Shown here piece by piece: positions 1-60,579 of a stretch of 64,000 nucleotides of DNA. How positions within the stretch are numbered: position 1 is the stretch's first letter; every line of letters begins with the position of its first letter. Source of the stretch: Acidobacteriota bacterium. GTDB taxonomy: Bacteria > Acidobacteriota > Blastocatellia > RBC074. The position numbers and the translations under genes are program-made. The stretch spans positions 26,380 through 90,379 of the forward strand of contig JANPFP010000066.1 in the NCBI GenBank assembly GCA_031423495.1. The letters are read 5' to 3'. The notes beneath the pieces are model-generated. The model saw only the letters and a list, made by a program, of their open reading frames with translations, did not search any database and had not been told where the DNA came from.

Positions 1-3000
1 TCACCGTGCCGGTTGCGCCTTCGACGGTCAGCGTTTGGTTATAAGCCACGCCGACGAAACCGCTCGGCAGTGTTGCCGGATTCACCGTCAACACGTTGCA
101 CATCGGACGCACTGTGAAAGGCCGCGTCGTGGTGCATCCGTTGGCGTCGGTGAGTCTGATGGTGAACGAACGATCCACCGTGCTGGTGGGCGTGCCGCTC
201 AATACGCCGGTCGTGGCGTTGAGCGTAATGCCGGCGGGCAATGTGCCGTCCGCCACCGTCCACGTTAGCGGAGCCAGCGCGTTCGGCGAGGTGAGCGTTG
301 CGTTATATGCCGCGCCGACTTGCCCTGACGGCAATGTCGTCGGATTGATCGTCAGAATGTTGCAGACCGGCGTCAGCGTGAATTCACGCGTACCCATACA
401 ACCGTTCGCGTCAGTGCCCCTGATGGTAAAGCTGGTGAACGTCGTCGTCGCCGTGCTGGTCGGCGTACCGCTCAACACGCCTGCTGTCGAGAGCGTTAAG
501 CCCGTCGGCAACGTGCCTGCCGAAACAGCCCACGTCACCGTGCCGTTCGCGCCCGAAGCCGTGAAAGTTACGTTATAAGCCGTACCCACTGTCGCCGTCG
601 GCAACGCAATCGGATTGACCGTGAACGTGTTGCATTGTGGCATCAGCGAATATTCGCGCGTTGCCATACAGCCGTTCACGTCAGTGCCTTTGACCGTGAA
701 ACTCGCGGTCGCGGTCGCCGTCGGCGTGCCGCTGATGACGCCCGTCGTCGCGCCCAATGACAAGCCCGTCGGCAATGAGCCAGTGGTGATCGTCCAGTTG
801 ACCGCACCCGTCGCGTTGTTGAGCGAAAGCGTTTGGTTATATGCGACGTTGATGCTGGCGACCGGCAAGGTCGTCGGCGCAATCGTCAGATTGGTGTTGC
901 AAATCGGAGTGATGGTGAATTCACGTGTCGCGGGGCAGTTGTTCGCGTCTACCGCACGAATGGTGAACGTGCGCGCCGTCGTGCTGGTCGGCGTACCGCT
1001 CAACACGCCCGAAGCTGAAAGCGTCAGGCCTGCGGGCAGTGTGCCAACTGAAACCGAGAACGTGACGTTGCCCGTCGCGCCGCTCACCGTCAGCGTTTGC
1101 GAATAGGCTGTGCCGACTTGTCCGTTCGGCAAGGTGGTCGGGTTGATCGTCAGCACGTTGCACACGGGCGTGATGGTGAAATCGCGCGTCGTGCCGCATC
1201 CGTTCGCGTCAACGACACTGATCGTGAAGCTGCGCGCTGTCGTGCTGGTCGGAGTGCCGCTAATCACGCCGCCCGCGCTCAACGTGAGGCCGTTGGGCAA
1301 CACGCCGTTCGCAATGCTGAACGTGACCGCGCCCGTTGCGCCGCTGACGGCGAGTGTCGCGTTGTAAGCCGCGCCGACTTGTCCGGCGGGCAAAGTGCTG
1401 GTGGTGAACGTCACTACGTTGCACACCGGCGTGATGGTGAAATCGCGCGTCCCCATACAGCCGTTCGCGTCGGTCGCTTTGATCGTGACCGTGCGCGCGG
1501 CGGTGCTGGTCGGCGTACCGCTGATCACGCCCGCTGCGGTCATCGTCAAGCCGTTCGGTAAAGCTCCAGTCGAAATGCTGAACGTCACATTGCCGTTCGC
1601 GCCCGTGACCGCAAGCGTCGCGTTATAAGCCACACCGACTTGTCCGTTCGGCAATGCGCTGGTCGTGAAAGCCAAAGCGTTGCAACCGGGCATCAGCGAG
1701 AATTCGCGCGTCGCCATGCAGCCGTTGGCGTCGGTGACTTTGACCGTGAAGGTCGCCGCCGTCACTGATTGCGGTGTACCGGAAATCAAGCCCGCCGTCG
1801 AAAGCGTCAAGCCCGTCGGCAATGCGCCCGAAGCAATCGTCCAAGTGACCGCACCGGTTGCGCCGGTGACGGTGAGTGATTGGTTATAAGCCACGTTCAC
1901 TGCCGCTGCTGGCAACGAAGCCGGTGTGACCGTCAACGTATTGCAAAGCGGCGTGATAGTGAATGACGCGGTCGCGGGGCAGTTGTTGGCGTCCGTCGCG
2001 CGAATCGTGAAGGTGCGGGCGATCGTGCTGGTTGGCGTGCCGCTCAATACGCCTGCCGGTGAGAGCGTTAAGCCAGCGGGTAAAGCGCCTGCTGAAACAC
2101 TAAACGTCACTGCGCCAGTTGCGCCGTTGACGGCGAGCGATTGGTTATACGCTGTGCCTACGGTGGCGCTGGGCAACACTGCCGGATTCAACGTCAATAC
2201 GTTGCAGACCGGCGTCATCGTGAACGAAGCCGTCACGCCGCATCCGTTAGCGTCAACCGCGCGGATGGTGAACGAACGATCCACCGTGCTGGTCGGTGTG
2301 CCGCTAATCAGACCCGTTGCGCTCAACGTCAAGCCGTTCGGCAAAGCGCCGCCCGTCAACGAGAACGCCAACGCGCCCGTCGCGCCTGTGACCGTGAGTT
2401 GTTGCGAATAGCTTGCGCCGACTTGTCCGTTGGGCAACGAAGCCGGATTCATCGTCAACGTGTTGCAGAGCGGCGCAATCGTGAAATCGCGCGTACCCAT
2501 ACAGCCGTTGGCGTCGGTCACTTTAATGGTGAACGTGCGCGCCGCCGTGCTGGTCGGCGTACCTGAAATTGAGCCACTCGCCGTCATCGTCAAGCCCGCA
2601 GGCAGCGTGCCCGCCGATATGCTGTAAGTTACTGCGCCGTTGTTGCCCGACACCGTGAGTTGTTGCGAATAAGCCGAGCCGACTTGTCCGTTCGCCAACG
2701 CGCTGGTCGTAATCGAGAGCAGGTTGCAACCGGGCATCAGCGAGAATTCGCGTGTGGCGAAACATCCGTTCGCGTCACTCACGCGCGCCGTGAAGGTCGC
2801 CGTCGAAACCGAAGTCGGCGTACCTGAAATCACACCCGTCGAACTCAAGCTCAAGCCGTTCGGCAAGCCGCCCGCCGAGATCGTCCAAGCGACTACGCCC
2901 GTCGCGCCCGTTACTGAAAGCGTTTGGTTATAAGGCACGTTGATAGCCGCCGCAGGCAAACTTGCGGGCGAAACCGTCAGCGTGTTGCAACCAGGTATGA

Positions 3001-6000
3001 ACGTGAAGCTCTGGGTCGCGGGGCAGTTGTTCGCGTCTACGACTCTGACCACAAACGTAGCGTTCGCCGTCGAAGTCGGAACGCCGCTGATGACGCCTGA
3101 AGCGTTGAGCGACAAGCCCGTGGGCAGCGCGCCAGAGGCGAGGCTCCAAGCGACGAGTCCGGTAGCTCCTGTGACTGTGAGTTGTTGGTTATAAGCCGCG
3201 CCGACTTGCGGAATCGGCAAGGTGGTTTGATTGACGAGCAACACGTTGCACGCAGGCGTGAGCGTGAAGGGGAGCGTCGCGGAGCATCCGTTCGCATCAA
3301 CTATGCGGACGGTGAACGTGCGCGAAGTTGTGTTGAGCGGTGTGCCGCTGATGAGACCCGCCGCTGAGAGCGACAAGCCCGCTGACAATTGGCTCGGCGC
3401 TACCAGACTCCACGTCACTGCGCCGGTCGCATTGCTGACCGTGAGCTGTTGGTTATAAGCCGTACCGACTTGCGCGTTCGTCAAAGTCGCAGGGCTGATC
3501 GCCAAATTGGTGTTGCAGAGCGGTGTGATGGTGAAATCGCGCGTACCCATACAGCCGTTCGCGTCGGTCACTTTGATCGTGAATGCAGCCGCCGTCGTGC
3601 TGGTCGGCGTACCTGAAACCAAGCCTGCTGCCGTGAGCGTCAAGCCCGCCGGTAACGTGCCAGTCGAGACGCTGTATGTCACTGCGCCGTTGTTGCCGCT
3701 GACCGTGAGTTGTTGCGAATAGCTTGTACCGACTTGCGCGTTGGGCAAGCTGGCTGGCCCCACCGTCAACGTATTGCAACCCGGCATCAGCGAATATTCG
3801 CGCGTCGCCATGCATCCGTTGGCGTCGGTGACTTTCACCGTGAAGCTGGCAGTCGCAGCCGCTGTCGGTCTGCCACTCAGCACGCCCGTCGAGGCGTTGA
3901 GCGACATACCCATCGGCAATGCGCCGGAAGCAATCATCCACACCAGCGGATTCGTCGCGCCGCCCGTGACCGTAATCGTCTGGTTGTAATCAACCCCGAT
4001 TTGCGCGCTCGGCAAGCTCGTCGGACTCAACGTCAACGTCGCGCAACCCGGCGTGATGGTGTATTCGAGCGTCGCCATACACCCGTTGGCGTCGGTCGCT
4101 TTGACCGTGAAGGTGAACGCCGTCGTCGGCAACGTGCCACTCAGCAAGCCGGTGCTTGAGAGCGTCAGGCTGCTGGGTAAAGGATTATTGGGCGGCGTCG
4201 TAACAACGCTCCAGACAACGTTTCCAGTTGCGTTGGTGGTGCTGAGTTGTTGCGAATAAGCCGCGCCAATGGTGCCGCTCGGCAGAACGAGCGGATTGAT
4301 CGTGATGGTTTGGCAAACAATGGTGACGGTGAATTCGCGCGTCGCCGTGCAACCGTTCGCGTCAGTCGCGCGAATGGTGAACGCGGGATTCGTCAATGAC
4401 GTAGGCGTTCCGCCAATCACGCCACCCCCTGCACTGTTAGACAGCGTTAAGCCAGCGGGTAATGAACCCGCTGAGACCGCGAACGAATACGGCGCAACGC
4501 CGCCTGTCGCTGAAAGCGTTTGCGAATAGGCCGCGCCAATCGTGCCGTTGGGCAAGGTTGCTGGATTCACTGTGATGGTCGGGCAAACCGGCGTCACGGT
4601 GTATTGGCGTTCGCCAAAACATCCGTTCGGTCCGGTCGCGCGAATCGTGAAGGTTGCGCTTGTGAAACTCGTCGGTGTGCCGCTCACCGCGCCCGTCGTC
4701 GGATTGAGTGAGATGCCCACCGGCAAGTTACCGGCTGACACGCTCCACGACACGGTACCGGTCAAGCCCGATTGCGTGAGCGTCGTTGAATAAGCCGTGC
4801 CTACGGTCATCGCGGGCGTCGTCGGGAAGGTCGCAGGCGAGATCGTTATGGTGTTGCATACGACGTTGAGCGTCAGCGTCACCGAGCCGGTGCATCCGTT
4901 CGCGTCGGTCACGCGGAAGGTGAGCGCGGGCGAACCCGGAGCCGTCGGCGTACCGCTCAACAGTCCAGCATTTGGGCCGCTGGTCACAAAGGTCATGCCG
5001 TTCGGCAACGTGCCGTTCGTCAAAGCCCACGTGAGTGTGCCGTTCGCGCCTGTCGCACTGAGTTGCTGTGAATAAGCCGAACCAACCGTCGCTTGCGGCA
5101 ATGAGGCAGGCGTCACGGTGATGGTTGGGCAAGTCGCCACGACCGTGAAGCTGCGCGTGCCTTTGCATCCGCCAGCATTGGTCGCATCGGTGGCTTCGAT
5201 GGTGAAGTTATAAGTGCCTGCCGTCGTCGGCGTACCGCTGATGACTGCGCCAGTTAATGATAAGCCGGTGGGCAACGCGCCTGTGCCGATGACCGCGAAT
5301 GTATACGTCCCGCTGCCGCCCGTCGCGGTGATGGTTTGGTTATACGCCGTGCCGACGGTCGCAGCGGGCAACGTCGCCGGATTCACCGTGATGGTCGGGC
5401 AGCCGACTGAAATCGAAAGCGCAATCGAACCCTGACAGCCGTTGCCGTCGGTCACGTTGATCGTGAAATTAAAGTTGCCGTTCGTCGTCGGCGTACCGCT
5501 CAAGAGTCCGCCAGTCGTCAGCGTCAAGCCACCGGGCAAGGCTCCGGCTGAGACCATCCACGCGAGTGGATTAACGCCGCCCGTTGCGGTGAGTTGTTGC
5601 GAATAGTTCGCGCCAATCGTACCGGCAGGCAGGCTGGTTTGCACTACGACCAGCGTGTTGCATACGACGTTGAGCGAGAGTGTCACCGAAGCCATACAGC
5701 CCAGCGAATCAGTTGCCGTGAAAACGAGATTGCTCGAAGCCAACGCCGTCGGCGTGCCGCTCAACAGACCCGCGTTCGTGAACGTCATGCCGTTCGGCAA
5801 TGTGCCGTTCGCCAGCGCCCACGTCACTGCGCCGGTTGCGCCTGTGACCGAGAGCGGTTGGTTATAAAGCGCGCCTAACACTGCGTCAGGCAGCGTGGTC
5901 GGCGTGATCGTCAGCACTCCGCAAGTGCGTACGGTGAAGCTGCGGCTGCCTGTGCAACCTGCTGCATCGGTCGCCATGATGGTGAACGTGGTGTTGCTTG

Positions 6001-12000: not shown

Positions 12001-15000
12001 TCACCGTTGGCGCAGGCGTCGCTGTCGGAGCCGTAGGCGTACCGCTAATCGCGCCCGTCGTCGGGTTAAGCGTTAAGCCTGCGGGCAACGTTCCCGCACT
12101 CACGCTCCAAGTGACCGTGCCGTTAAAGCCTGTGACGCTGAGGGTGTGCGAATAGATCGCGCCCACCGTACCCGTCGGCGGCGTGGTCGAAGTCACATTC
12201 AAGTTATTGCATACCGGTTGCACAGTGAACGAACGCGAACCCGCGCAGCCGTTCGCGTCCGTCGCCGTGACGGTGAAGGTGCGCGACACCGTGCTGGTTG
12301 GCGTACCGCTGATCGTGTTGCCGGTGAGCGTCAAGCCTGCGGGCAGCGTGCCGGTGACAGTCCATGTCAGCGAGCCGTTGCCGCCTGTCGCGCTCAAGGC
12401 AGCACTGTAAAACACGCCTACCGTGCCGTTCGGCAAGGTCGTTTGGTCAATCGTGATGGTGGGGCAATTCGATGAAAGATTGAACTCTTGCGTGCCCGTG
12501 CATCCGTTCGCGTCAGTCGCCGTGATGTTGAACGGTGTCGAAGCCGTGCTCGTCGGCGTACCGCTAATCACGCCGCCCGTCGTCATCGTCAATCCAGCCG
12601 GCAGGCTGCCCGTTGTGACTGCGTATGTGTAAGGCGAAGTGCCGCCCGTCGCGCTGACCGTTGCGTTGTAAGGCGTGCCTACAACCGCGTTGGGCAAACT
12701 GGTCGTCGTGAAAGTAATTGCCGGGCAAGTGCGCGTGATAGTCAGCGGTACTTGTCCGCTGCAACCGTTTTGATCAGTCGCGCGAATCGTGACGTTCGTG
12801 CTGCCCGCCGTCGTCGGCGTACCGCTCAACAATCCGGTCGAGGGATTGAGCGTCAAGCCTGTTGGCAACGTGCCGACGCTGATGCTCCAGGTGATCGTGC
12901 CGATGCCGCCGGTTTGCGACATCTGTTGCGAATAGCTTTGTCCCACCGTCGCGCCGGGCAAGGTCGCGGGCGTGACCGTGATCGTCGGGCAAGCAATCGT
13001 GATGCTCAACGGTGTCGTCGTGAAGCAGCCATTCGCGTCAGCCGCGCGCACCGTGAAATTCGCCGTGCCAGCCGCCGTCGGCGTACCCGAAATCACGCCG
13101 CCAGTGGAAAGCGATAGCCCCGCAGGCAATGCGCCGGTCACCGTCCACGAATAAGGCGAAGTGCCGCCCGTCGCCAAGAGCGTTTGGTTATACGCCACGC
13201 CAATCGTACCGCCCGGCAGCGCGCCGGTTTGCGTAATGCTCACCGTCGGGCAGTTCATCGAGATGGTGAAACTGCGCGTACCGAGACAGCCGTTCGCGTC
13301 ACTGGCTTGAATCGTAAAGCTGGAAGAACCTGCAGCCGTCGGCGTACCGCTCAACACTTGCGTCGCCGGGTTGAACGTCATGCCGGTCGGCAATGCGCCC
13401 GCGCTGACGCTCCAGGTAATCGCGCCTGCGCCGCCGCTTTGCGTGAAAGTCGTCGTCGGATAAGCCGTGCCGACTGTGCCATCCGGCAACGTCGCCGGAT
13501 TCACAGTGATGGTCGGGCAACCCGTCGAGATCGAAAGATTGACGGTGGCGAAACATCCGTTGACGTCGGCGACGCGAACGACGAACGAAGCACTGCCGTT
13601 CGCTGTTGGAATACCGCTAATCACGCCTGCGGTTGAAAGGGTTAAACCCACCGGCAAGCTGCCGCTATCCAGTGTCCAGTTCAGTGCGCCTGTGCCGCCG
13701 GTCGCAGTGAGCGTTTGGTTATACGCCGTACCGATGACGCCGTTCGGCAAGCTCGATTGATTGATGGTGATGGTTTGGCAATTGACCGCGATGCTCAACG
13801 CGCGGGAACCCGCGCAACCCGAAACGTCAATCACACCCACCGTGAAATTGCCTGTCGCCAATGCCGTCGGTGTGCCGGTGATGGCTCCGCCACTCGACAA
13901 GGTCAAACCGGCGGGCAGGCTTCCGCTCAAAACGCTGAACGTGTAAGGCCCGGTTCCGCCCACAGCGGTGAGCGTTTGGTTATAAGCCGCGCCCATCGTC
14001 GCGTTAGGCAGTGTCGCCGGATTGATCGTGATGACATCGCAGACCGTACCGCTGTAAGGGCGCGCGCCCGTGCATCCACTGGCCGTATGCGTGGCGGTAA
14101 TCGTGAAGCTGTAAGCGCCCGGTGTCGTCGGCGTACCGCTCAACAAACCGGTCGAAGCGTTCAACGTCAGACCCACAGGCAACGCGCCCGCGCTGACCGA
14201 ATAAGTCACTGGGCCCGACAAGGTCGTCGTCGTCGAGAGAAGTTGCGAGAACGCGAGCCCCGTCGTCATGCCAGGCAGTGTCGCGGGGTTCACCGTGAGC
14301 GTGGGGCAAGCCGGAGTCGCTGTGAAATTGCGCGTGCCGGTGCATCCGTTCGCGTCGGTCGCCGTGATGGTGAACGTTTGCGTGGTCGAACTCGTCGGCG
14401 TGCCGGTGATGGCTCCGTTGCTGGCAAGCGTCAAGCCCGCTGGCAAGCTGCCGGTCGTGACCGCAAAGGTATGAGGCGTTGCGCCGCCCGTCGCGGTGAT
14501 GGTTTGGTTATAAGCTGTGCCGACGGTTCCGTTCGGCAACGTCGCTGGATTCACCGTGATGGTTGGGCAACCAATGGTGATGCTCAGCACTTGCGAACCG
14601 GTGCATCCGTTCGCGTCGGTTACGCCAACGGTGAAATTCGACGTGCCCGCTGTCGTCGGCGTACCCGTGATTGCGCCGTTTGCCGCGAGCGTCAAGCCCG
14701 CTGGCAGCGAGCCGCTCGTTACCGCAAACGTTCGCGGAGCTGTGCCGCCCGTCGCCGTCAGCGTTTGGTTATAAGCGACGCCAATCGTGCCGCCCGGCAA
14801 TGCGCCGGTTTGCGTCACGCTGATCGTCGGGCAAGTCATTGTGATGGTGAAGCTGCGCGTACCGATGCAACCATTTGCATCTTGCGCTTGAATCGTGAAG
14901 CTCGCCGAACCTGCAGCCGTCGGCGTACCGCTCAACACCTGCGTGGCGGGGTTAAAGGTCAAGCCCGCAGGCAATGTGCCGGAAGAAACGCTCCAGGTAA

Positions 15001-18000
15001 TCGCGCCCGTGCCGCCGCTTTGCGTGATGGTCGTCGTCGGATAAGCCGTGCCCACCGTGCCGTTCGGCAAGGTCGCGGGGCTTACCGTGATCGTTTGGCA
15101 ACCAATCGAAATCGAAAGATTCGTTGTGGCGAAACATCCGTTCGCATCTTGCACGCGCACCGTGAAGGTCGCGTTGCCGTTCGCCGTCGGTGTACCTGAA
15201 ATCACACCACCGGTTGAGAGTGATAAACCGGCAGGCAGGCTTCCGCTGCTGACCGTCCAGTTCAAAGTGCCGTTGCCGCCGGTGGCGGTGAGCGTTTGGT
15301 TATAAGCCACGCCAACGGTTCCATTGGGCAGGCTCGATTGATTGATCGTGATCGCCTGGCAATTGATGGCGATGCTCAACGTGATTGAGCCGCTGCAACC
15401 TGAACTGTCAACGACGCCGACGGTGAAATTGCCCGTCGTGAGACTGGTCGGCGTACCCGTGATGACGCCCGTACTCGACAAGGTCAAACCGGCAGGCAGG
15501 CTTCCGCTCGTGACGCTGAATACATATCCGCCCGCGCCGCCCGTCGCCGTCAGCGTTTGGTTATACGCTGTGCCAAGCGTCGCGTTAGGCAAGCTCGCCG
15601 GAGTAATCGTGATGTTGCCGCAGATGGTGCCACTGTATGCGCGTTCGCCCGTGCATCCGCTGGCGGTATGCGTAGCGCGAATCGTGAAGCTGTATGACCC
15701 AGCTGTCGTCGGCATACCCGTAAGCGCGCCCGTTGTCGCATTCAACGACAAGCCCGCAGGCAGCGCGCCCGCCGAAACTGAATAAGTGAATGCGCCCGTA
15801 AGGGAACTCGTGACTGAAATCGTCTGCGAGAACGCCGAGCCAACGGTCATCGCGGGCAATGTCGCCGGATTTACCGTGATGGCTGCGCAGTTGATCGCGA
15901 TGGCGAGCGTGGCCGTGCCGGAACAGCCGTTCGCGTCAGTCGCTCTAAACGTAATGTCGGGCGTAGGCACAGCAGTTGGCGCGGTCGGCGTACCGGTAAT
16001 CGCCCCCGTCGAAGCATTCAACGACAAGCCCGCAGGCAGCGTGCCGCTTTGGATGCTCCAGGTGATCGTGCCCGTGCCGCCGACTTGCGTGAGCGTTTGG
16101 TTATAAACCGCGCCCACCGTCCCGCTCGGCAAGGTCGCCGGGCCAACTGTTATGGTTTGGCAATTGATCGCAATGCTCAACGCTTGCGTCGTCGTGCAAC
16201 CAAAGTTGTCAGTCGCGCGCACGGTGAAATTCGCCGTGCCGCTCGTGGTCGGCGTACCGCTAATCACGCCGCCGGTTGAGAGCGTCAAGCCCGCAGGCAA
16301 TGAGCCCGTAGCTGTCCAGGTGTAAGGCGCAGTGCCGCCGGTCGCCGTCAGCGTTTGGTTGTAAGCGACACCAATCGTGCCCGCGGGAAGCGCGCCGGTT
16401 TGCGTGATGCTCACCGTCGGGCAGTTCATCGTGATGGTGAAGCTGCGCGTGCCGATACAGCCGTTCGCGTCGCTCGCCTGAATCGTGAAGCTCGACGAAC
16501 CCGCAGCCGTCGGCGTACCGCTCAACACTTGCGTCGCCGCGTTGAACGTCAAGCCTGCCGGCAAGGTGCCCGATGAAACGCTCCACGTAATCGCGCCCGT
16601 GCCGCCGCTTTGCGTGATGGTCGTCGTCGGATAAGCCGTGCCGACTGTGCCGTTCGACAACGTCGCCGGATTCACCGTGATGGACTGACAGCCAATCGAA
16701 ATTGAAAGACTCGTTGTCGCAAAACATCCGTTCGCATCTTGCACTCTGACCGTAAACGTCGCGCTGCCATTCGTCGTCGGCGTACCGCTGATGACGCCGC
16801 CTGAAGAAAGCGTCAAACCGGCGGGCAGGCTTCCGCTGCTGATCGTCCAGTTCAAAGTGCCGTTGCCGCCGGTGGCGGTGAGCGTTTGGTTATATGCCGT
16901 GCCGACGGTTCCGCCCGGCAAGCTCGATTGATTGATCGTGATGGTTTGGCAATTGATGGCGATGCTGAGGCTGCGACTGCCCCCACAACCCGAAGCGTCA
17001 ACCACATTCACCGTGAAAGTGCCGGTCGTGAGATTCGTTGGTGTGCCGCTAATCACACCGCCGCTCGAAAGTGTCAGACCCGTGGGCAGGCTTCCGCTGC
17101 CAACACTGAACGTATAAGGCCCGGTTCCGCCTGCGACCGAAAGCATTTGGTTATACGCTGAGCCAAGCGTCGCGTTGGGCAAAGTCGCAGGGTTGATCGT
17201 GAGTACGTCACAAACGGTGCCGCTATAAAGCTGTGAGCCGCTGCATCCGCTGGCGGTGTGCGTCGCGGTGATCGTGAACGCATAAGCCGCCGCCGTCATA
17301 GGCGTACCGTTCAACACGCCCGTCGTCGGATTCAAGTTCAGCCCCGCAGGCAGGCTTCCGCCCGTGACGGCATAAGTGACCGCGCCGGTGAGCGTCGTCG
17401 TAACCGAAATCGTTTGATTGAAAGGCGTGCCTACGGTCACTGCGGGCAATGTCGCGGGATTGACCGTAATCGTGGGGCAAGCCGGTGTGATGGTGAAGTT
17501 GCGTGTGCCGGTACACCCGCTCGCCGTATGCGTTGCCGTGATGGTGAACGTCGCGGCGCTGCTGCTGGTCGGAGTTCCGGTGATTGCGCCGGACGTGGTG
17601 TTGAGCGTTAATCCGGCAGGCAAGGCACCGGTCGTGACTGAGAACGTGAACGCGCCGGTGAGTCCGGTGGCGCTGACGGTTTGCGAATACGCCGTGCCGA
17701 CAGTGCCGTTGGGCAAGGTCGCCGGATTCACCGTAATCGTGGGGCATGAGGGTGTGATGGTGTAGGCCTGCAAGCCGATACAGCCGTTGGAATTCGTTGC
17801 TGTGATTGTGAAAGAAGCGGCAGAGCTGCTGGTTGGCGTGCCACTCAATAGGCCTGCGCTGGTGAGCGTTAAGCCTGGGGGCAGCGCACCGGCTGTGACC
17901 GCAAACGTATGGCCCGTGCCGCCTGTCGCTGTAATGTTTTGTGAATAGGCTGTGCCTACTGTCATAGCGGGCAAAGTCACCGGACTGACTGTGACCGTTG

Positions 18001-18265
18001 GGCAAAGGCGCGTGAGCGTCAGTGACAGTGCGCCCGTGCAACCGTTGGCATCGGTGGCGGTGACGGTGAAAGTGTTTGATCCGGTTGTAGTGGCCGTGCC
18101 GCTCAATACGCCAGCGCTGGTCAGTGTGAAACCAGCGGGCAATGTGCCCGCTGTGACAGCAAAGGTATAAGGCGTTGTGCCGCCTGTCGCCGCGAGCGTT
18201 TGGCTATAAGCTACGCCGAGGGTTGCGTCAGGCAAGCTCGCAGGCGTGAGTGAAATCGTCGTGCA
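1..18265 (-). repeat. Tandem array of about 68 coding repeats, period about 264–270 nt (one ~88-aa Ig-like domain each). It contains nested higher-order repeats (about 1.59 kb x3 around 12950–17750; about 0.8 kb x2 around 8200–9500).
   Basis: Recurring nucleotide motifs (ttataagc..., cgttcgcgtc..gtgaa, gtcggcgtaccgct) recur at about 265-nt spacing. Near-identical plus-strand shadow ORFs recur at 13761/15342/16932 and at 13184/14765/16355. Confidence 0.85.
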
Positions 18266-21064
18266 AACGCCAAAGCCTGCATCGTAATGATGTTGGTTCT
18301 GGCCTTCGGTGACGGTGGTCAAATCCACCGCGATGAAAGGATAGTTCCCTGCGCCAATCGGCCCCGCCGCAGGTTTTTGCAAATCAGAATCGCGCGTGTC
18401 TTGTGTATTGCCGCTCACGTCGCGTGACGTGACGATCTTGCCTGCCAGCGGATTGCCGGTGGTGTAATTCGCCGCGTTGTCAAAACGCAGTTGATAACTC
18501 GCACCTAGCGTCAAGCCCGCGATGCCGTAACGACGCGAACCTGTGCTGGCGCGTCCGCCCTGGTTGTTTTCCGTGTAACCGCCATTCGAGGCCGTATTAT
18601 TCGGCGCGTTGTTGCCCGCAGTGGGATAGCCGCGCATGTCATTCGAAAAAGCATAAGAACCGGCGCTGTCTGTTACAGCGGTTGCCACCAAGGTAGCTCC
18701 GCTATAAAGCCGCACTGTCACGCCTGACAGTGCCATTTCGCTGGGGTCTTGAATGCCGTCGTTGTCGGCGTCCATCCACACGCGGTTGCCGATTTCGACG
18801 GGCGGCAGATCAATCATCGGTTCAACGTCACCGAGGCCGCTGGCCTTGCCGAAGTTTTCCGCCGTGTTGAGATAGAGGCGATAGGCTTTGTTAAACGAGC
18901 CGGTCGTCAAGCCCAACCAGCGAAATCCGCCGGTAAAGGCTTCATCCACCAACGGACGCGGAATCGGGTCAAAGGTAGACGCTACGACCTGAGGGTAGCC
19001 CAGAAGCTGCGTCAAGCTGCCAAGCATGACTTCATCGTGAAATTGACCGGCATTCGGATTCGTCGAGTAATCGTCGTTATGGAAAAATTCACCCTTGCCG
19101 GTGTTGGTATTGGAAGCGCCCGTGCCCGGCCCTTGCCCCGTGTCTTGCGGCGCGCTGCCCAGGCCGCCGCAACGGCCATTGCTTTCGAGCGTCCAACCTG
19201 TTGACGGACTGCCACAAGCCTTGAGCAAATCACCTGCCGGACGAATGCTATAGGTCGTGTTATTCGCCGGATTATCCAGTGAGGCTTCCCCGCCCTGATC
19301 GCCCAGGCGGTCACGTATCGCCAAATACAAATTGCCGCCGTTGTCGAACTCGAGGTCGGTCAACATCGGCGCGGGATTGGCATAAGTCGTTGCCATGTTC
19401 GTGGGAAAGGCCGACGACCACGGCAGCCATTGCGCGCGATAACCACCGTTGCTCGGTTCGGGAATGCCGCGCAGGTAATTTAGCGGAGCTTGAAAGATCG
19501 GCGAGGCACCGAAAGCCAGCGTCGTCGGATTCACCGTAAACACATAAGCCCGCAAATAACGCGCATCACCCAGGTTATAAATGCCGTTGCCATCACCGTC
19601 GGTGAACGGTTCACTCGTGTTGTAACGTCCGTTGTTGTTCGAGTCCGTCCAGCCGCTATCCACTGTCGTCGTAGATTGCGCGCTGCATACCATGCCGACA
19701 TACAACTGGCCTTGATGGAACTTCACCGCAAAAGGCCGCACGTCAGCAGCGGCGCAAGTGTTGGCTCCCGGTCCCGCAGGCAGTCCCGTTGTCGGTACAA
19801 CCTGACTCGTCAGCACTGCGCCGGTCGAACGATTCAACGCATAGAGCGTGCGGTTTTGCAGGTTCATCACATACAACCGCGTTTCGTCTTCCGAGACGTC
19901 AATGCCGCCTAAGCCGTATTTGCCTGTCGCGTCCCAACCGGTGTTGCCGTTGTCGCGTCCGTAATCATCAGTTTTGTGCGGATTGGTTGTCGCATTTGGT
20001 ACGGTGAATGTGCCGACTTTGGCATTGGTGTCGGGGTTGATAATGTAAATTGCTCCCGGATCATCGCTGCTGTTACCCGCCTGATACGTTCCGCCCCCAT
20101 TGACCGTGCTGTTAAGCGTATTGTCAGCGCCGGGGCCGAAGCCCGCATACTTTTTGAAATAACTCGCCGCATACAATCGCCGCGCCCGCCGTGCATAAGC
20201 CAAGCCCCAAGCCGTGCCCGCCTGTGGCGCAGGAATCATCACGCTATGCGTCGTCGGCACCCCGTATGGTGCCGAAGTTGTGTCAGTTGACGCGCCCGCC
20301 GAATAAGGGAAGCTCACGATTACGCCCTGATTCGTATTGGCCGCGCTGTCCTGTGCGCCTGTCACAAAGCAGGTCGTCGCCAGCAAAGGATTATTCGGGC
20401 TGTAATGCTGTGGCACGTTGATGGCGAAATTCATGTTGGCGACGTTGCCAGCCGTCGTGTCTACGAACCGCACGTTGCTCTGCGAATCCGCGCCTTGCGC
20501 GCTCGACTCAAAGCCCGCCGGTAAATTGACGAATTCGACGCGCACCAGATTCGTGCCGACCGGAACCGTAACCTGATAGAACCCCGGATTGCTGCCCGTG
20601 CAAACGCCGCCCACCGTCGTGCCGCAAGTCGTGGTCGTGGCGATGACCGTATTGGCGTCGTTATAAACATTGACCGTCACGCCACTGATGCCGCGATCTA
20701 CGGCCACCGGAACCGTTGTCGCCGTATTGCCGTCGTTCGGCAACGTACCGGTCGTGTCGAATGCACCGTTGCCGTTGTAATCCTGAAACACCGTACCGGT
20801 GACATTGCCCGCCGCTGCCGCTGAAGAAAAACCGAGCTTCGCGCCCACATAACTCGCGCTGTTGGCCAATGAATGGCGCAACTTCACGCCCAACGCCGCT
20901 TCCAGGCGCGCCGCCTGTGAGTTACCGCCGCCGCGCGCCATCAACGCTAATAGTGCCAGCGTAACTAAGCCAGTAACTAAACCGATGCGAATAATTTCCC
21001 GATTGAGCTTCTTTTTATTCGCTTTATTATTCGCCGGGGTCGTCGTGTCGTGTGTGTTTTTCAT
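1..21064 (-). CDS. Giant secreted or surface repeat protein (adhesin-like), over 7,000 aa within the window and truncated at the window edge (C-terminal part lies beyond position 1). It has an N-terminal signal peptide or TM segment, two SdrD-B/Cna-B-like domains flanking a beta-propeller-like region, then about 68 tandem Ig-like (He_PIG/HYR-type) domains.
   Basis: Hand translation of the reverse complement gives a continuous frame. Near 21064 it reads MKNTHDTTTPANNKANKKKLNREIIRIGLVTGLVTLALLALMA...GTVFQDYNGNGAFD...NRVWMDADNDGIQDPSEMALSGVTVRLY (SdrD-B-like). From about 18265 downward it gives repeats such as LCNTNLAITPATLPNGQVGTAYSQALSVTATGGTGPYTFAVTTGTLPAGLTLTGATIAGTPTSTASRTFTITATDANNCTGTREFTVTP. 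There is no stop in this frame at any point I checked. It is missing from the ORF track because it has no stop codon inside the window. Confidence 0.85.
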   Translation of the reverse strand, partial: MKNTHDTTTPANNKANKKKLNREIIRIGLVTGLVTLALLALMARGGGNSQAARLEAALGVKLRHSLANSASYVGAKLGFSSAAAAGNVTGTVFQDYNGNGAFDTTGTLPNDGNTATTVPVAVDRGISGVTVNVYNDANTVIATTTTCGTTVGGVCTGSNPGFYQVTVPVGTNLVRVEFVNLPAGFESSAQGADSQSNVRFVDTTAGNVANMNFAINVPQHYSPNNPLLATTCFVTGAQDSAANTNQGVIVSFPYSAGASTDTTSAPYGVPTTHSVMIPAPQAGTAWGLAYARRARRLYAASYFKKYAGFGPGADNTLNSTVNGGGTYQAGNSSDDPGAIYIINPDTNAKVGTFTVPNATTNPHKTDDYGRDNGNTGWDATGKYGLGGIDVSEDETRLYVMNLQNRTLYALNRSTGAVLTSQVVPTTGLPAGPGANTCAAADVRPFAVKFHQGQLYVGMVCSAQSTTTVDSGWTDSNNNGRYNTSEPFTDGDGNGIYNLGDARYLRAYVFTVNPTTLAFGASPIFQAPLNYLRGIPEPSNGGYRAQWLPWSSAFPTNMATTYANPAPMLTDLEFDNGGNLYLAIRDRLGDQGGEASLDNPANNTTYSIRPAGDLLKACGSPSTGWTLESNGRCGGLGSAPQDTGQGPGTGASNTNTGKGEFFHNDDYSTNPNAGQFHDEVMLGSLTQLLGYPQVVASTFDPIPRPLVDEAFTGGFRWLGLTTGSFNKAYRLYLNTAENFGKASGLGDVEPMIDLPPVEIGNRVWMDADNDGIQDPSEMALSGVTVRLYSGATLVATAVTDSAGSYAFSNDMRGYPTAGNNAPNNTASNGGYTENNQGGRASTGSRRYGIAGLTLGASYQLRFDNAANYTTGNPLAGKIVTSRDVSGNTQDTRDSDLQKPAAGPIGAGNYPFIAVDLTTVTEGQNQHHYDAGFGVCTTISLTPASLPDATLGVAYSQTLAATGGTTPYTFAVTAGTLPAGFTLTSAGVLSGTATTTGSNTFTVTATDANGCTGALSLTLTRLCPTVTVSPVTLPAMTVGTAYSQNITATGGTGHTFAVTAGALPPGLTLTSAGLLSGTPTSSSAASFTITATNSNGCIGLQAYTITPSCPTITVNPATLPNGTVGTAYSQTVSATGLTGAFTFSVTTGALPAGLTLNTTSGAITGTPTSSSAATFTITATHTASGCTGTRNFTITPACPTITVNPATLPAVTVGTPFNQTISVTTTLTGAVTYAVTGGSLPAGLNLNPTTGVLNGTPMTAAAYAFTITATHTASGCSGSQLYSGTVCDVLTINPATLPNATLGSAYNQMLSVAGGTGPYTFSVGSGSLPTGLTLSSGGVISGTPTNLTTGTFTVNVVDASGCGGSRSLSIAINCQTITINQSSLPGGTVGTAYNQTLTATGGNGTLNWTISSGSLPAGLTLSSGGVISGTPTTNGSATFTVRVQDANGCFATTSLSISIGCQSITVNPATLSNGTVGTAYPTTTITQSGGTGAITWSVSSGTLPAGLTFNAATQVLSGTPTAAGSSSFTIQASDANGCIGTRSFTITMNCPTVSITQTGALPAGTIGVAYNQTLTATGGTAPYTWTATGSLPAGLTLSTGGVISGTPTTSGTANFTVRATDNFGCTTTQALSIAINCQTITVGPATLPSGTVGAVYNQTLTQVGGTGTITWSIQSGTLPAGLSLNASTGAITGTPTAPTAVPTPDITFRATDANGCSGTATLAIAINCAAITVNPATLPAMTVGSAFSQTISVTSSLTGAFTYSVSAGALPAGLSLNATTGALTGMPTTAGSYSFTIRATHTASGCTGERAYSGTICGNITITPASLPNATLGTAYNQTLTATGGAGGYVFSVTSGSLPAGLTLSSTGVITGTPTSLTTGNFTVGVVDSSGCSGSITLSIAINCQAITINQSSLPNGTVGVAYNQTLTATGGNGTLNWTVSSGSLPAGLSLSTGGVISGTPTANGNATFTVRVQDANGCFATTNLSISIGCQTITVSPATLPNGTVGTAYPTTTITQSGGTGAITWSVSSGTLPAGLTFNPATQVLSGTPTAAGSASFTIQAQDANGCIGTRSFTITMTCPTISVTQTGALPGGTIGVAYNQTLTATGGTAPRTFAVTSGSLPAGLTLAANGAITGTPTTAGTSNFTVGVTDANGCTGSQVLSITIGCPTITVNPATLPNGTVGTAYNQTITATGGATPHTFAVTTGSLPAGLTLASNGAITGTPTSSTTQTFTITATDANGCTGTRNFTATPACPTLTVNPATLPGMTTGLAFSQLLSTTTTLSGPVTYSVSAGALPVGLTLNASTGLLSGTPTTPGAYSFTITATHTASGCTGARPYSGTVCDVITINPATLPNATMGAAYNQTLTAVGGTGPYTFSVLSGSLPAGLTLSSGGAITGTPTALATGNFTVGVIDVSGCAGSRALSIAVNCQTITINQSSLPNGVIGTAYNQTLTATGGTGALNWTLDSGSLPVGLTLSTAGVISGIPTANGSASFVVRVADVNGCFATVNLSISTGCPTITVNPATLPDGTVGTAYPTTTFTQSGGAGAITWSVSAGALPTGMTFNPATQVLSGTPTAAGSSSFTIQASDANGCLGTRSFTISMNCPTVSITQTGALPGGTIGVAYNQTLLATGGTSPYSWTVTGALPAGLSLSTGGVISGTPTAAGTANFTVRAADANGCFTTTPLSITIACPTITVTPATLPGATVGQSYSQQMSQTGGIGTITWSISVGTLPTGLTLNPSTGLLSGTPTTAGSTNVTIRATDQNGCSGQVPLTITRTCPAITFTTTSLPNAVVGTPYNATVSATGGTSPYTYAVTTGSLPAGLTMTTGGVISGTPTSTASTPFNITATDANGCTGTQEFNLSSNCPTITIDQTTLPNGTVGVFYSAALSATGGNGSLTWTVTGTLPAGLTLTGNTISGTPTSTVSRTFTVTATDANGCAGSRSFTVQPVCNNLNVTSTTPPTGTVGAIYSHTLSVTGFNGTVTWSVSAGTLPAGLTLNPTTGAISGTPTAPTATPAPTVTIRATDANGCFGSVTIAIIVNCQSITVNPASLPTMTTGVSFSQTFTQSGASGAVTWTTTGTLPAGLTFNAATAILSGTPTSAAAYNFTVTATDANGCAGSRNYTGSPTCTTITLSPASPVPGLPNATVGTPYNTTISATGGSTPYTYSVTTGQLPAGLTLAASGVNAGQITGTPTSTISRTFTITATDANGCTGFLSFTLQPACNTLTVTPATLPAGTVGVLYPNQTLSVSGNNGAVTWNAPSNLPAGMTFANGVLGGTPTAPTTGTSVTFTATDANGCQGSVTISIRVNCATITVNPATLPTMTVGSTFSQVFSATNTTGTLTWSFTGTLPGGLTFNTATATLSGTPTSSAPFNFTVSVTDANGCQGSRAYSGNAGCTTITVNPATLPNGTVGTAYAATMTATGGSTPYTFAVTNGSLPAGLSLAPNGVNAGAITGTPTTAGAFTFTITATDAADCTGSRTFTVRTCDVISVTPTSLPNATINQAYSQTLGATGGTGPYSFTLTGSLPAGLSLLNGVISGTPTALGTSNFSITVNDSTSCPGARSLTITVVCNTLNITTASLPNPVAGVAYNQTLAATGGTNPLTWTIEAGGALPVGLTLSTSGAITGTTTATTAANFTVRVTDANGCFGTRSFTLTPGCSTITMLPTSLPTGTVNAAYTTTTFSATGGVSPYTFAIVSGTLPTGMSFTNGVLSGTPTTPINGTIRFMATDNAGCTATVDLTLVVNCPTITVNPTTLPNGTIGAAYSQLLSATGGVGTYTFTITGTLPAGLSLTGGNTISGTPTAAGSANIAVRATDANGCFATRDLTITIGCPVISMNSTLPNGQVGTPYNQTLTGSGGTGPYTFGITTGTLPAGLMLTGNLIDGTPTSTATANFTIQVTDARGCTATQTFSVTPICNTNLVLNPTTLPAITRGVAYSATLSTTGTTGAVTYAVTVGALPTGLTLSGATISGTTNVSTATTFTVTATDANGCTAVRQYTLTPNCPAITVNPATLPNGQVGTAYPSTTISATGGTGPYTFAVTTGTLPAGLTLTGATIAGTPTSTASRTFTITATDANNCTGTREFTVTPLCNTNLAITPATLPNGQVGTAYSQALSVTNATGAVTFALTTGSLPNGLTLTGNTIGGTPTSTTARAFTITATDANGCTATANFTVTPICNTNLSLNPATLPAITRGVAYTATLTTANAMGAVSYAITAGSLPNGLTLSGATISGTTNVATASTFTITATDANGCTASRQYTLTPGCATITVASTTLTNGQVGVPYSATITATGGTAPYGFNVSVGQLPAGLTLDGPTGVISGTPTSTLLRTFTISVTDANGCPGSQSFTIAPACNALTINQSSLPNATVGAAYNQTLTVSGATGAITWTMTGTLPNGLTFANGVISGTPTAPTASPASLTFRATDANNCFATVVLTINVVCNTLNITTSSLPNPVAGVAYNQSLAATGGVNPLTWTLASGSLPTGLTLSTAGVVSGTTSDVTAHTFTIKVTDANGCMGTRNFTLTVGCSTMTFATPTSLPQGTVGAVYPSTTFTVTGGATPYTFSIMTGTLPTGMTFINGVLAGTPTAPASGTITFKVTDNGGCMATIDLALVINCQTITLDQTAVGPFVVGTPYSQQLTATGGRGALTWSLVTPGTLPAGLTLTSGGLLAGTPTSSAGATFTIRVTDVNGCRGERTYTVTPNCPTITVSGTLPNGQVGTAYSQTVSATGGVSPYTFSLVGSLPAGLTLTGNTIGGVPTSTAATTFSIRAQDANGCFGALQFTITPVCNTLTITTNLPNGQVGAAYSQQLAVTGATGTVTWSVTGTLPAGLSLTSGGLLSGTPTSTISRTFTIRAVDANNCPATSEFTITPICNAFTITPANLPAISVGMPYSVTFGTTGATGAVTFSVTAGTLPAGLTLTGNVLAGTPTSNASVSFTITATDANNCPATATYSLAPGCTALTVNPASLPGGIVGAAYSATLSTTGATGAVTFSVTNGALPAGILLNATTGALTGVPTTASNTTFTIMATDAAGCTGSRSFTVRTCGVLTITPTTLPDAVLGALYNQPLSVTGATGAVTWALANGTLPNGMTFTNAGLLSGTPTALASSNLVFTATDSLGCMASVTLSLNVVCNTLVVVQTSLPAGTIGANYSQQLTATGGVNPLAWMVSAGALPGGLTLTTGGLLSGTPTTNGNFNFTINVTDGNGCQGSIALSISVGCPTITVNPATLPAATVGTAYNQTITATGGSGTYTFAVIGTGALPTGLSLTGAVISGTPTTAGTYNFTIEATDATNAGGCKGTRSFTVVATCPTITVTPASLPQATVGSAYSQQLSATGANGTLTWALTNGTLPNGMTFVTSGPNAGLLSGTPTAPGSPALTFRVTDANGCTGSVTLTLNVVCNTITISPATFPTTPAMTVGTAYSTTLTQSGLTGTVSWSVSAGNLPVGISLNPTTGAVSGTPTSFTSATFTIRATGPNGCFGERQYTVTPVCPTITVNPATLPNGTIGAAYSQTLSATGGVAPYSFAVSAGSLPAGLTLSNSAGGGVIGGTPTSLTNPAFTIRATDANGCTATREFTVTIVCQTITINPLVLPSGTIGAAYSQQLSTTNATGNVVWSVVTTPPNNPLPSSLTLSSTGLLSGTLPTTAFTFTVKATDANGCMATLEYTITPGCATLTLSPTSLPSAQIGVDYNQTITVTGGATNPLVWMIASGALPMGMSLNASTGVLSGRPTAAATASFTVKVTDANGCMATREYSLMPGCNTLTVGPASLPNAQVGTSYSQQLTVSGNNGAVTYSVSTGTLPAGLTLTAAGLVSGTPTSTTAAAFTIKVTDANGCMGTRDFTITPLCNTNLAISPATLTNAQVGTAYNQQLTVSNATGAVTWSLVAPSQLSAGLSLSAAGLISGTPLNTTSRTFTVRIVDANGCSATLPFTLTPACNVLLVNQTTLPIPQVGAAYNQQLTVTGATGLVAWSLASGALPTGLSLNASGVISGVPTSTANATFVVRVVDANNCPATQSFTFIPGCNTLTVSPASLPAAAINVPYNQTLSVTGATGVVAWTISAGGLPNGLSLSSTGVISGTPTSVSTATFTARVSDANGCFATREFSLMPGCNLLSITTSALANGQVGSAYSQQLTVSGNNGAVTYSISAGTLPAGLTMTASGSISGTPTSTAARTFTIKVTDANGCMGTRDFTIAPLCNTLTMNPASLPNGQVGASYSQQLTVTGATGALAFSLTGGALPNGLTLSATGLISGTPTSTVDRSFTIRAVDANGCGVTASFTMTPVCNVLTLNPAVLPSATVGTAYNQSLAVNGATGAVTFSVSAGALPAGLTLSPAGVLSGTPTSTIARTFTIRATDANNCPATASFTITPLCNTLTVTPASLPAAAVNVAYNQSLTVTGATGAVTWTIASGALPTGLTLSTAGLISGTPQSVTAATFTVKVTDANGCMATREFSLMPGCNALAFTTSALPNGQVGVAYNATLAVTGANGNVTFSISTGALPNGLTMTAAGVISGTPTSTAARTVTIKATDANGCMGTRDFTITPVCNVVTFTTSTLPAGQVGAAYNATLAVSGATGAVTFSIANGVLPNGLTLSAGGVISGTPTSTTARSFTISVVDANGCGTTRDFTITPVCNVLTINPTTLPNGQVGTAYSQTLTVSGATGNVTFSVSVGTLPAGLTLSASGVLSGTPTSTTARTFTIRAVDANNCPATREFTITPICNTNLTIAPTTLPVASINVAYNQTLSLNNATGAVNWTITTGSLPTGLSLGATTGVISGTPTATATASFTVKGTDVNGCMATREYSLMPQCNTFTVNPIALPTATVGTAYNVTFTASGANGTVTWAVSAGTLPTGLTLSTAGVLSGTPTSTATTTFTSFTIRGTDANGCMGTREFTLTPVCNILTINPTTLPSGQVGAAYNATLTSPNALAPLTWTVADGTLPAGITLNATTGVLSGTPTSTVDRSFTIRLTDANGCTTTRPFTVRPMCNVLTVNPATLPSGFVGVAYNQTLTVEGATGTV

Positions 21065-21942
21065 AGGGGTGGTTTTGGGTTTACGTTGCAAGGGAGTTAT
21101 CACCTGATATTTTTTCTGGTCGTTGGTTATTTTCGCGTTGGCGCGAGTAACTTGCTTGCGGGCAAAGCTGTGCCTAGCTCGTCGGATGCGGACGTTGAGC
21201 GCCAAAAGACGAGTAACTAAAAATAGAATTTCGTAAGCTGAAATTTACGCGCGCATAGCAAGTTATGACGCAGGCTTAACGCCAGTGCCACAGCTTGCAC
21301 GGGAAGCGCAGCCGCTTTGATTTTTCAGCTATACGTCGTAAGGATTTCCGAATAACAGGCGGGATGAGTCATTCGGTTAATCGCCAAAAGAGCTTCACAC
21401 TGGTCGCTGAAGCGCGATCTGTTTCGTGAGTGATTGCAATTTGACCGTGAGTTACCAAATTAGCTGCAATTCCCCATACCCTCTGAGCTAGTAGCAGGGA
21501 AGGTCGGGTACGGCGGAAGTTGCAGATAAGTCCAGGGATCGCTGAACGAACAGCGAGGGGATTTTGCGTGACAGGATAATTTGTGGGGATGGGAGATCCC
21601 TAAATTGAGTTACTTAGGGAGAAGAGAGAAAGAAACTTCTCAAATGCGGGGTGGATATTAAGGATGACCTTGAGCGCGGTCAAGAAAATAATACAGCGCC
21701 CCGGACTTTCCCTGACAAACTGCGAGGAATAGTACCTAACCTCATCGCTCACCCGCGCCATTCTTTTGATTTTTCCTTTCCGGTTTCCCTCCCTCTGAAA
21801 ACCAATGACAAATCTCAAATAGAAAATCTCAAATGGAAAATAGCTGCTATCCACGTTCGGAGTCGCTTGAAACGAGCCGCCCACACCCTTTCAATTTTTC
21901 ACCCCTTCAGCCTCTCGCGGTCTCACTGCTATACTGCGGCGC

Positions 21943-22542: not shown

Positions 22543-22548
22543 CGGAGT

Positions 22549-23457: not shown

Positions 23458-23483
23458 GAAAAAAGGTCGGACTGGTGGAAAAG

Positions 23484-24920: not shown

Positions 24921-24950
24921 ACTATTTCTCGTTTGGGTATCAACTGCCGT

Positions 24951-25051
24951 GTCAGTAGCCCGCGCGTAAGCAAGGGCTGCCTTCAAAATGTGTGCCTTGC
25001 AGCAACGGGCGCAAACTAGAGGCAGCCCTTGCTTACGCGCGGGCTACTGAC
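24951..25051. promoter_or_regulatory. Perfect 31-bp inverted repeat (gtcagtagcccgcgcgtaagcaagggctgcc / ggcagcccttgcttacgcgcgggctactgac) with a 39-nt spacer, lying between the DUF1549/1553 gene and the DUF1501 gene.
   Basis: Read directly from the sequence: stems at 24951–24981 and 25021–25051. Confidence 0.6.
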
Positions 25052-25061
25052 ACGCGGCCAA

Positions 25062-53787: not shown

Positions 53788-53806
53788 TTTGGCCCCAACC
53801 CTTCTG

Positions 53807-54707: not shown

Positions 54708-54718
<11 letters not shown>
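53807..54718 (-). CDS. TonB C-terminal domain protein (energy transducer-like), with signal peptide
   Basis: Signal or TM segment [25 protein letters not shown] and a C-terminal TonB_C-like region [23 protein letters not shown]...[16 protein letters not shown]. An 11-nt overlap with the metH stop. Confidence 0.55.
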
Positions 54719-58400
<3,682 letters not shown>

Positions 58401-58432
58401 TATGACTCCAAATAAGAAACAGTAATTCTATT

Positions 58433-60572: not shown

Positions 60573-60579
60573 ACCTCTA

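Follow-up and report, generated by a model that had tools for sequence, protein, structure and literature searches.

Giant surface proteins built from tandem immunoglobulin-like (Ig-like) domains are well known. In diderm bacteria, the giant RTX adhesins of the type I secretion system (T1SS), such as SiiE, LapA and MpIBP, are very long rods of ~50-120 tandem Ig-like domains that serve in surface attachment; they have no Sec signal, carry RTX nonapeptides and a T1SS signal at the C-terminus, and owe their rigidity to Ca2+. Acidobacteria rank with the most abundant bacteria of soils, and their attachment to particles and building of aggregates are poorly understood. In this regard, we describe an unusually long and well-preserved gene of the Ig-repeat kind, from a soil or freshwater acidobacterium, in the left third of a 64,000-nt stretch of contig JANPFP010000066.1 (assembly GCA_031423495.1, positions 26,380 to 90,379 of the forward strand), the whole of which is called the window here. 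We consider it rather likely that the product of this functional gene of a Blastocatellia-type acidobacterium is exported and forms a giant rod of the fibrillar-adhesin kind, which makes the gene a concrete candidate for acidobacterial attachment and aggregation.

The closest solved relative of its repeats is SraP of Staphylococcus aureus (PDB 4M00-4M03; 30-33% identity, TM-score 0.73, profile E=6e-15), in which tandem cadherin-like (CDHL) modules form a Ca2+-stiffened rigid stem that projects a lectin (PMC4047093). In both proteins the stabilised point appears to be the junction of a domain's first residue and its F-G loop. However, SraP has two modules with one Ca2+ each (Asp573/601/645 and Asp661/690/734), whereas here there are 70 modules with a Cys pair at the junction. 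SraP is also a Gram-positive, LPXTG-anchored serine-rich glycoprotein with an L-lectin head, while the protein described here has a propeller head, no LPXTG and a diderm acidobacterial host.

A second comparison is offered by the TIE (thioester/isopeptide/ester) adhesins (Mobiluncus mulieris, Cpe0147, Spy0128), among them a 7,651-aa M. mulieris adhesin with a covalently cross-linked Ig stalk (PMC10619420). Like these, the giant protein is a single polypeptide of similar size with an N-terminal globular module and dozens of Ig-like domains, and it would likewise resist tension through an intradomain covalent link from the first strand region to the last strand. The links of TIE adhesins are autocatalytic ester or isopeptide bonds that have defined catalytic motifs, whereas the disulfide proposed here needs an oxidising compartment; by regular expression, the ester-bond motif HxDxxDxxQ was absent from both the window protein and its complete ortholog, P0361. 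The present protein also differs in its Ig subfamily, in having no thioester domain and in lacking a sortase signal. Fibrillar adhesin-like proteins as a group carry 1-73 stalk domains (Monzon et al. 2021, PMC8286594), and the giant protein resembles them in its tandem stalk and non-repeat terminal module, its 70 domains standing at the top of that range. Membership of that group, however, is defined by an adhesive Pfam domain already known as such and in most cases by a recognisable anchor, and neither is visible here. The giant protein departs from the RTX/T1SS adhesins in its hydrophobic N-terminal signal and in a stalk nearly devoid of acidic residues, and the GGxGxD motif was absent from the window protein and from the complete ortholog. 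Finally, its propeller resembles the YWTD propellers (nidogen, LRP4/6, LDLR) in fold only, at ~12% identity; at 536 aa the core has double their length and contains large insertions, with an SdrD_B sandwich on either side, and Pfam Ldl_recept_b gave no match in the head at E<=1. In the searchable literature, the Cys-for-Ca2+ junction, the families of the head and the C-terminal domain, and the difference of 21 versus 70 repeats between orthologs appear to be undescribed.

Translation of the reverse complement of window positions 1-21064 gave a frame of 7,021 codons with 0 stops, running on the minus strand from the ATG at 21064 (MKNTHDTT) to position 2. Each of the remaining five frames holds 115-506 stops, and the chance of an equally long stop-free run is ~1e-94 at the local base composition. 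The visible part of the protein has a mass of 694.5 kDa and a pI of 5.5. Because the frame runs off the window, it is missing from the list of open reading frames (ORFs), and for annotation this means that the largest gene can go unseen when an ORF track leaves out frames that cross the edge of a contig. The parts of the gene are as follows.

2..21064, minus strand: giant gene, 5' 21,063 nt (7,021 codons), with the 3' end beyond window position 1.
20912..21064, minus strand: N-terminus, aa 1-51, with a basic stretch (KANKKKLNR), a hydrophobic helix and a possible cleavage site between SQA and A.
20807..20935, minus strand: Ala/Ser/Gly-rich linker, aa 44-86.
20417..20806, minus strand: first SdrD_B-like beta-sandwich, aa 87-216, with the motif GTVFQDYNGNGAFD.
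18809..20416, minus strand: predicted six-bladed beta-propeller with long insertions, aa 217-752.
18266..18808, minus strand: second SdrD_B domain, aa 753-933, with NRVWMDADNDGIQDPSE and a disordered insert at aa 813-835.
101..18265, minus strand: 69 complete tandem He_PIG repeats, aa 934-6988, cut at the invariant cysteines.
12992..17746, minus strand: super-unit, repeats R03-R20, three copies of six repeats with a period of 1,590 nt and ~75% nucleotide identity.
2..100, minus strand: first 33 residues of repeat 70, aa 6989-7021, cut by the window edge and corresponding to the last repeat of the ortholog, O21.
21065..21942, no strand: non-coding spacer of 878 nt between the giant gene and a divergent YgjP-like gene.

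The first-pass annotation, made from the letters and the ORF list, had proposed a giant partial gene whose plus-strand ORFs are shadows of it, and the stop-free translation bears this out. Its size range of 60-160 aa for the tiling ORFs was too narrow: most measure 60-170 aa, with longer ones of 209, 260 and 494 aa. The 494-aa ORF (13715-15199, plus strand) lies antisense to the constrained repeats R36-R41 and had no Pfam match; it is probably a shadow ORF too, permitted by the sense strand's bias towards Thr/Gly/Ala codons.

The giant gene is real and under purifying selection throughout. Between paralogous repeats, pN/pS is 0.10-0.41, with mainly synonymous differences, and against the ortholog it is 0.20-0.27 for head and repeats, compared with 0.08-0.10 for the flanking genes. 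What the cell keeps up in this way is costly, namely a coding sequence of 21-25 kb and a protein of ~0.7 MDa (probably ~0.8 MDa in full). A 7,150-nt Logan contig (L001, run SRR20217191) equals window 16865-24014 with 0 mismatches, so the start of the gene is independently reproduced; an exact-protein look-up gave this contig alone, and a 50-mer from window 1-50 had no exact match in the genome and metagenome contig sets. This short-read contig of the same organism ends at 16865, inside R06, at the start of the three-fold super-unit; giant repeat genes of such a kind are usually present as mere fragments in short-read assemblies and protein databases. The longest exact nucleotide repeat in the array is 56 nt and identity at the kilobase scale is <=84%, so assembly collapse, raised as a concern by the first-pass annotation, is unlikely.

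The stalk consists of He_PIG repeats of 84-95 aa (mode 87). An array of ~68 Ig-like domains had been announced; the array stands, and the exact count becomes 69 complete repeats and a cut 70th. Single repeats matched Pfam He_PIG (PF05345) at 48.5 and 58.1 bits (gathering score 24; E=1e-12 to 1e-15), and 1,000-aa segments yielded 11 He_PIG stretches each (E=4e-147 and 2e-136), in agreement with the He_PIG core of ~88 aa first proposed. A resemblance to HYR domains, suggested at the same time, found no support, since HYR (PF02494) gave no match with single repeats at E<=10 or with 1,000-aa segments at E<=0.01. An AlphaFold2 (AF2) model of two repeats, built on 68 repeat pairs, had a predicted local distance difference test score (pLDDT) of 95 and was all-beta, with 7-8 strands per repeat. 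The best Foldseek match of this model was the SraP CDHL tandem 4m00 over both domains (TM-score 0.73), with cadherins next, and the repeat profile found SraP by sequence as well (6e-15). The repeats share a mean pairwise identity of 49% at the amino acid level (maximum 92%). Searching with the repeat profile for giant relatives gave only fragments of <=350 aa, which are usable for Cys co-occurrence and not for architecture.

Each repeat has a pair of cysteines, invariant in 69/69 repeats as first noticed and as segmentation and alignment now establish, one at residue 1 (start-Cys) and one in the F-G turn TDANGC (F-G Cys). Among 263 He_PIG domains from 120 other proteins, both cysteines were found in 125 and both were absent in 134, and the F-G Cys never stood alone (0 cases); in the other four domains the start-Cys was present alone, and two of these are signal-peptide cysteines. 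Fisher's P of 2e-71 for this co-occurrence is overstated, as many of the domains are tandem copies and not independent.

Which cysteines would pair can be read from spacing and from the array ends. The F-G Cys lies ~75 residues after its start-Cys and 11-12 before the next one. Eight of the 12 residues that separate an F-G Cys from the start-Cys of the following repeat (model aa 83-90) form one continuous strand, and since these two cysteines sit at opposite poles with the strand between them, they are too far apart to bond. At the array start, no Cys lies upstream of Cys934 in the window protein or of Cys918 in P0361, and at the array end the last P0361 repeat has its F-G Cys (2762) with no Cys after the G strand. 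With this pattern, only pairing within a repeat, start(i) with FG(i), leaves no free thiol.

The profile alignment to SraP places the start-Cys on Asp661 and the conserved D of TDANGC on an F-G-loop Asp (645 or 734). In SraP, the Asp residues at these positions coordinate a single Ca2+ at each junction (PMC4047093), so the first residue and the F-G loop are neighbours in the solved homolog. Asp and Glu together make up just 1.7% of the repeat region, and the Ca2+ site is for this reason taken to be gone from the repeats. When the cadherin interdomain Ca2+ motifs DxNDN, LDRE and DxD were looked for, there were 0 occurrences. Each domain is thus probably stapled by a disulfide from start-Cys to F-G Cys, as pattern and model suggest, and we infer that this disulfide stands in place of the SraP-type Ca2+ clamp.

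If so, the load path through each domain would be the S-S bond plus the 12-residue G strand, and the rod would be stiff and would resist unfolding under tension, held by an almost unbroken covalent spine analogous to the isopeptide and ester bonds of Gram-positive adhesin stalks. We put forward tentatively, as a possibility that may well prove wrong, the wider reading of an undescribed force-resistant fibre, in which a disulfide replaces the junction Ca2+ in a widespread He_PIG subclass and a 70-domain covalent spine links two conserved end modules of undescribed function, the propeller head and the C-terminal domain. If true, the stalk would be a diderm, redox-dependent counterpart of the Gram-positive isopeptide and ester spines. 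The Cys-pair subtype of He_PIG offers a simple, testable hypothesis, namely mechanical stabilisation by disulfides instead of Ca2+.

The complete ortholog P0361 (3,982 aa) is encoded on contig JAYSVR010000276.1 (locus L082) of GCA_043718445.1, an Acidobacteriota metagenome-assembled genome (MAG), isolate GFS_12827. The order of genes is as in the window, with DUF1501, GntR, a divergent YgjP-like gene and the giant gene; the head is 80% identical and the flanking proteins are 94-97% identical to those of the window. P0361 carries 21 He_PIG repeats, collinear with the window array at identities of 74-97%. The following ortholog repeats (O) correspond to repeats of the window (R).

O7-9: window R16-18.
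O10: window R21.
O11: window R22.
O12: window R30.
O13-17: window R41-45.
O18-20: window R67-69.

Compared with P0361, the window has 49 extra repeats, arranged in blocks, and the six-repeat super-unit is present once in P0361 versus three times in the window. The two repeat numbers, 21 and 70, have diverged 3.3-fold, and the proteins encoded next to the giant gene are 94-97% identical in these genomes; the two genes form a natural pair for studying the speed of stalk-length evolution.

The window ends at P0361 residue 2718 (motif TVEGATGTV), within the last repeat, where 1,264 residues remain in the ortholog; at the nucleotide level, window 1-1264 aligns to L082 12389-13655 with 83.8% identity. 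Extrapolated by orthology with P0361, the window protein would be ~8,300 aa in full. Beyond its last repeat, P0361 has five SdrD_B domains, ~130 unassigned residues and a Cys-rich C-terminal domain of ~290 aa (aa 3691-3982, L082 16575-17446). For this last domain, neither Pfam and NCBIfam nor the PDB sequences gave a match. Its identity to the C-terminus of a head-family protein from Limisphaerales (a verrucomicrobium) is 56%, and it occurs in 8/256 head-family proteins, always at the extreme C-terminus; the other proteins that it ends are P0087, P0103, P0112, P0113, P0118, P0399 and P0427. It is a candidate for a new domain family. The C-terminus of P0361 has no transmembrane (TM) segment and no LPXTG, PEP-CTERM or RTX motif, which speaks against the anchor or sorting signal that the first-pass annotation had placed beyond the window, as P0361 is a complete syntenic ortholog.

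At the other end, the ~850-aa head consists of an SdrD_B-like sandwich, a propeller and an SdrD_B sandwich. An AF2 model of the head, built on an alignment of 100 homologs, gave a pLDDT of 84.7 and a predicted TM-score (pTM) of 0.86. By sequence, the first SdrD_B-like domain remains below threshold (Pfam SdrD_B, E=9.5e-5, 23 bits versus a cutoff of 29.7), while aa 87-216 are modelled as an all-beta sandwich with a pLDDT of ~90, and homologs score with SdrD_B and CarboxypepD_reg in the same region. The second domain passes the same cutoff (PF17210, 56.4 bits, E=4e-15) and matches the SdrD B domain by PDB sequence at 1.4e-9. Two SdrD_B-like domains flanking a propeller-like region had been foreseen at the outset, and both are retained, the first by its modelled fold and the second by its Pfam score.

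Between them, aa 217-752 contain ~25 strands in the AF2 model, on which ground we assign a six-bladed propeller. Its insertions include DxNxNG-type acidic loops at aa ~470-500, and no Pfam or NCBIfam family matched this region. The best structural matches of the propeller are extracellular ligand-binding YWTD domains, at the level of fold resemblance. Conserved Cys pairs in the head (Cys437/Cys460 and Cys617/Cys632) suggest a location outside the cytoplasm.

The head belongs to a large family. With the 934-aa N-terminus as query, a word-indexed search returned 337 matches at E<=1e-5; for the best of these, E lies between 1e-192 and 1e-140 and identity is 40-46% across >=91% of the query. When the propeller core served as query for exhaustive HMMER, 2,872 cluster representatives came up, of which 839 reached E<=1e-30. 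In species-representative genomes there are 566 head-family loci, mostly in Pyrinomonadaceae, Blastocatellia and Chloracidobacterium, next in Chloroflexota and Bacteroidota, and with a few in Planctomycetota at 34-35% identity. The propeller core thus defines a family of 2,872 clusters in at least 566 species-level genomes, mainly of Acidobacteriota, Chloroflexota and Bacteroidota, without a Pfam model. Most members are stand-alone proteins of 900-1,000 aa, annotated as 'SdrD B-like domain-containing' or 'carboxypeptidase regulatory-like'; in most of the family the N-terminus is short, and an S-x-A-Q consensus directly precedes the first domain. Lengths of 256 family proteins have a median of ~990 aa and a maximum of 4,919 aa. 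The head stands at the N-terminus in every case and is followed by differing C-terminal parts, including CarboxypepD_reg, a C25-like region, FG-GAP-like repeats and HYR-DUF11-CTD; only one other of the 256, P0361, carries a He_PIG array.

Two further observations concern the family. Pyrinomonadaceae members of ~2,000-2,250 aa (L002 9755-15772, L019 9857-16234 and L045 3973-10707) have a C-terminal region that looks C25/gingipain-like, a call made by eye only, from the motif ADFVI.AP...LLFGD.... An MsrA-like gene (GCFWC motif) lies immediately upstream of a ~950-aa head-family paralogue in 22/80 related loci of Blastocatellia and Pyrinomonadaceae genomes (for example L006 3609-4202 and L007 9081-9644). 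We considered the conserved neighbours of head genes (msrA, acetyl-CoA synthetase, ABC transporter and permease, in 14-22/80 related loci) as possible partners and rejected them, as none flanks the giant gene; their recurrence looks like lineage synteny of the ~950-aa paralogue.

The N-terminal hydrophobic signal or anchor expected from the first reading is present. Kyte-Doolittle hydropathy (KD19) peaks at aa 23-43, the hydrophobic helix spans aa ~24-43 (window 20936-20995), and AF2 places a helix at aa 16-43, followed by a linker with a pLDDT <50 over aa 44-80. It is the only strong Kyte-Doolittle TM-like segment, with a marginal one near aa 5122, and it is conserved in P0361. From these features, aa 1-51 are predicted to be either a Sec signal peptide or a signal anchor.

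Taken in order, the full protein would comprise the N-terminal export helix, the ~850-aa globular head, 70 cadherin-like He_PIG domains, five SdrD_B domains and the C-terminal domain. A cadherin-like domain measures ~4 nm, and 70 domains at ~4 nm each would give a rod of roughly 0.3 µm. Such a rod would hold one globular end far from the cell, for attachment to particles, polymers or other cells. The most likely function suggested by this order is that of a fibrillar adhesin or a spacer, the adhesin role being read from architecture.

Several points weigh against this interpretation. No domain with a demonstrated adhesive function was found in Pfam or NCBIfam, and the head and the C-terminal domain are without characterised relatives. 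The complete ortholog has no anchoring motif at either end except the N-terminal helix. This helix is long (17-20 hydrophobic residues), with no canonical AXA site directly after it; it may stay uncleaved and serve as an inner-membrane anchor, a role hard to square with a 0.3 µm extracellular rod in a diderm. In addition, the tail of ~1,264 aa is extrapolated from the ortholog, and the ortholog works with 21 repeats, so the extreme length is inessential to the function of the protein.

The helix also bears on the polarity of the rod, and the reverse arrangement is a serious rival, although we judge it unlikely. Here the N-terminus would be an uncleaved signal anchor, the head cell-proximal and envelope-binding, and the C-terminal end the working tip. 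Consistent with such an arrangement, the complete ortholog has its sole TM-like segment at the N-terminus and no anchor motif at the C-terminus, and the hydrophobic stretch of 17-20 residues, modelled as a 28-residue helix, leads into a flexible linker of ~40 aa. The head is constant in the family while the C-terminal parts vary, constant modules often being the anchoring ones, and 56% identity of the C-terminal domain across phyla is what would be expected of a functional tip. However, the S-x-A-Q consensus of most head-family members resembles an ordinary cleaved signal peptide, an inner-membrane-anchored rod has no known route across the outer membrane, and the YWTD domains that best match the propeller in structure are extracellular and bind ligands.

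A fibrillar adhesin with a binding head is also preferred over a tethered or matrix-embedded catalyst, in which the propeller would be lactonase-, phytase- or lyase-like; we regard such an enzymatic head as improbable. Across 100 homologs the head does show many invariant or near-invariant charged residues (among them R532, R584-D585-R586, D589, E627, E659, H676 and D699), and some family members have the C25/gingipain-like C-terminal region called by eye, but its identity to any enzyme is <=15%, no catalytic motif can be mapped onto it, and it had no enzyme match in Pfam or NCBIfam. Last, a chimeric or collapsed array or a decaying pseudogene, non-functional or mis-assembled, is hardly credible: the window edge does cut the gene, the short-read assembly of the same organism breaks within R06 and the ortholog carries just 21 repeats, but against this stand 21 kb free of stops (P ~1e-94), purifying selection along the whole gene, 138/138 repeat cysteines kept, divergence too high for collapse (longest exact repeat 56 nt, kilobase-scale identity <=84%), a repeat order collinear with the ortholog and a first 4.2 kb identical in an independent assembly.

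Upstream of the giant gene, the 878-nt spacer contains one weak sigma-70-like site (minus strand, 21683-21655) and presumably holds the promoter and leader. Its central ~500 nt are ~80% identical to the 819-nt spacer of the ortholog, conserved about like the coding head; the spacer is unusually long and may be a regulatory leader. Rfam gave no match for the spacer (21065-21942) or for the whole window.

The MetH protein of the window is 80-85% identical only to proteins from Blastocatellia and other Acidobacteriota, and by this identity the host is a Blastocatellia-type acidobacterium. A planctomycete host, which the DUF1501, PSCyt and PSD1 genes would suggest, was ruled out by MetH and by the ortholog in an Acidobacteriota MAG. 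There are three sets of DUF1501 and PSCyt/PSD1 (DUF1549/DUF1553) genes in the window (23484-27260, 34371-37538, 40290-43133 and 49688-51175); these families, named after planctomycetes, are not diagnostic of phylum.

Adjoining MetH is a low-GC islet at 58433-61254 (GC 0.436 over 58001-60000, versus ~0.55 elsewhere). It encodes an AbiEii-type nucleotidyltransferase toxin (type IV toxin-antitoxin) together with a DUF3644 protein, and may represent a small insertion of a mobile or defensive nature. At 53320-54718, immediately downstream of MetH on the minus strand, the window encodes a 155-aa ankyrin-repeat protein beside a TonB C-terminal-domain protein; free-living bacteria do not commonly have ankyrin repeats.

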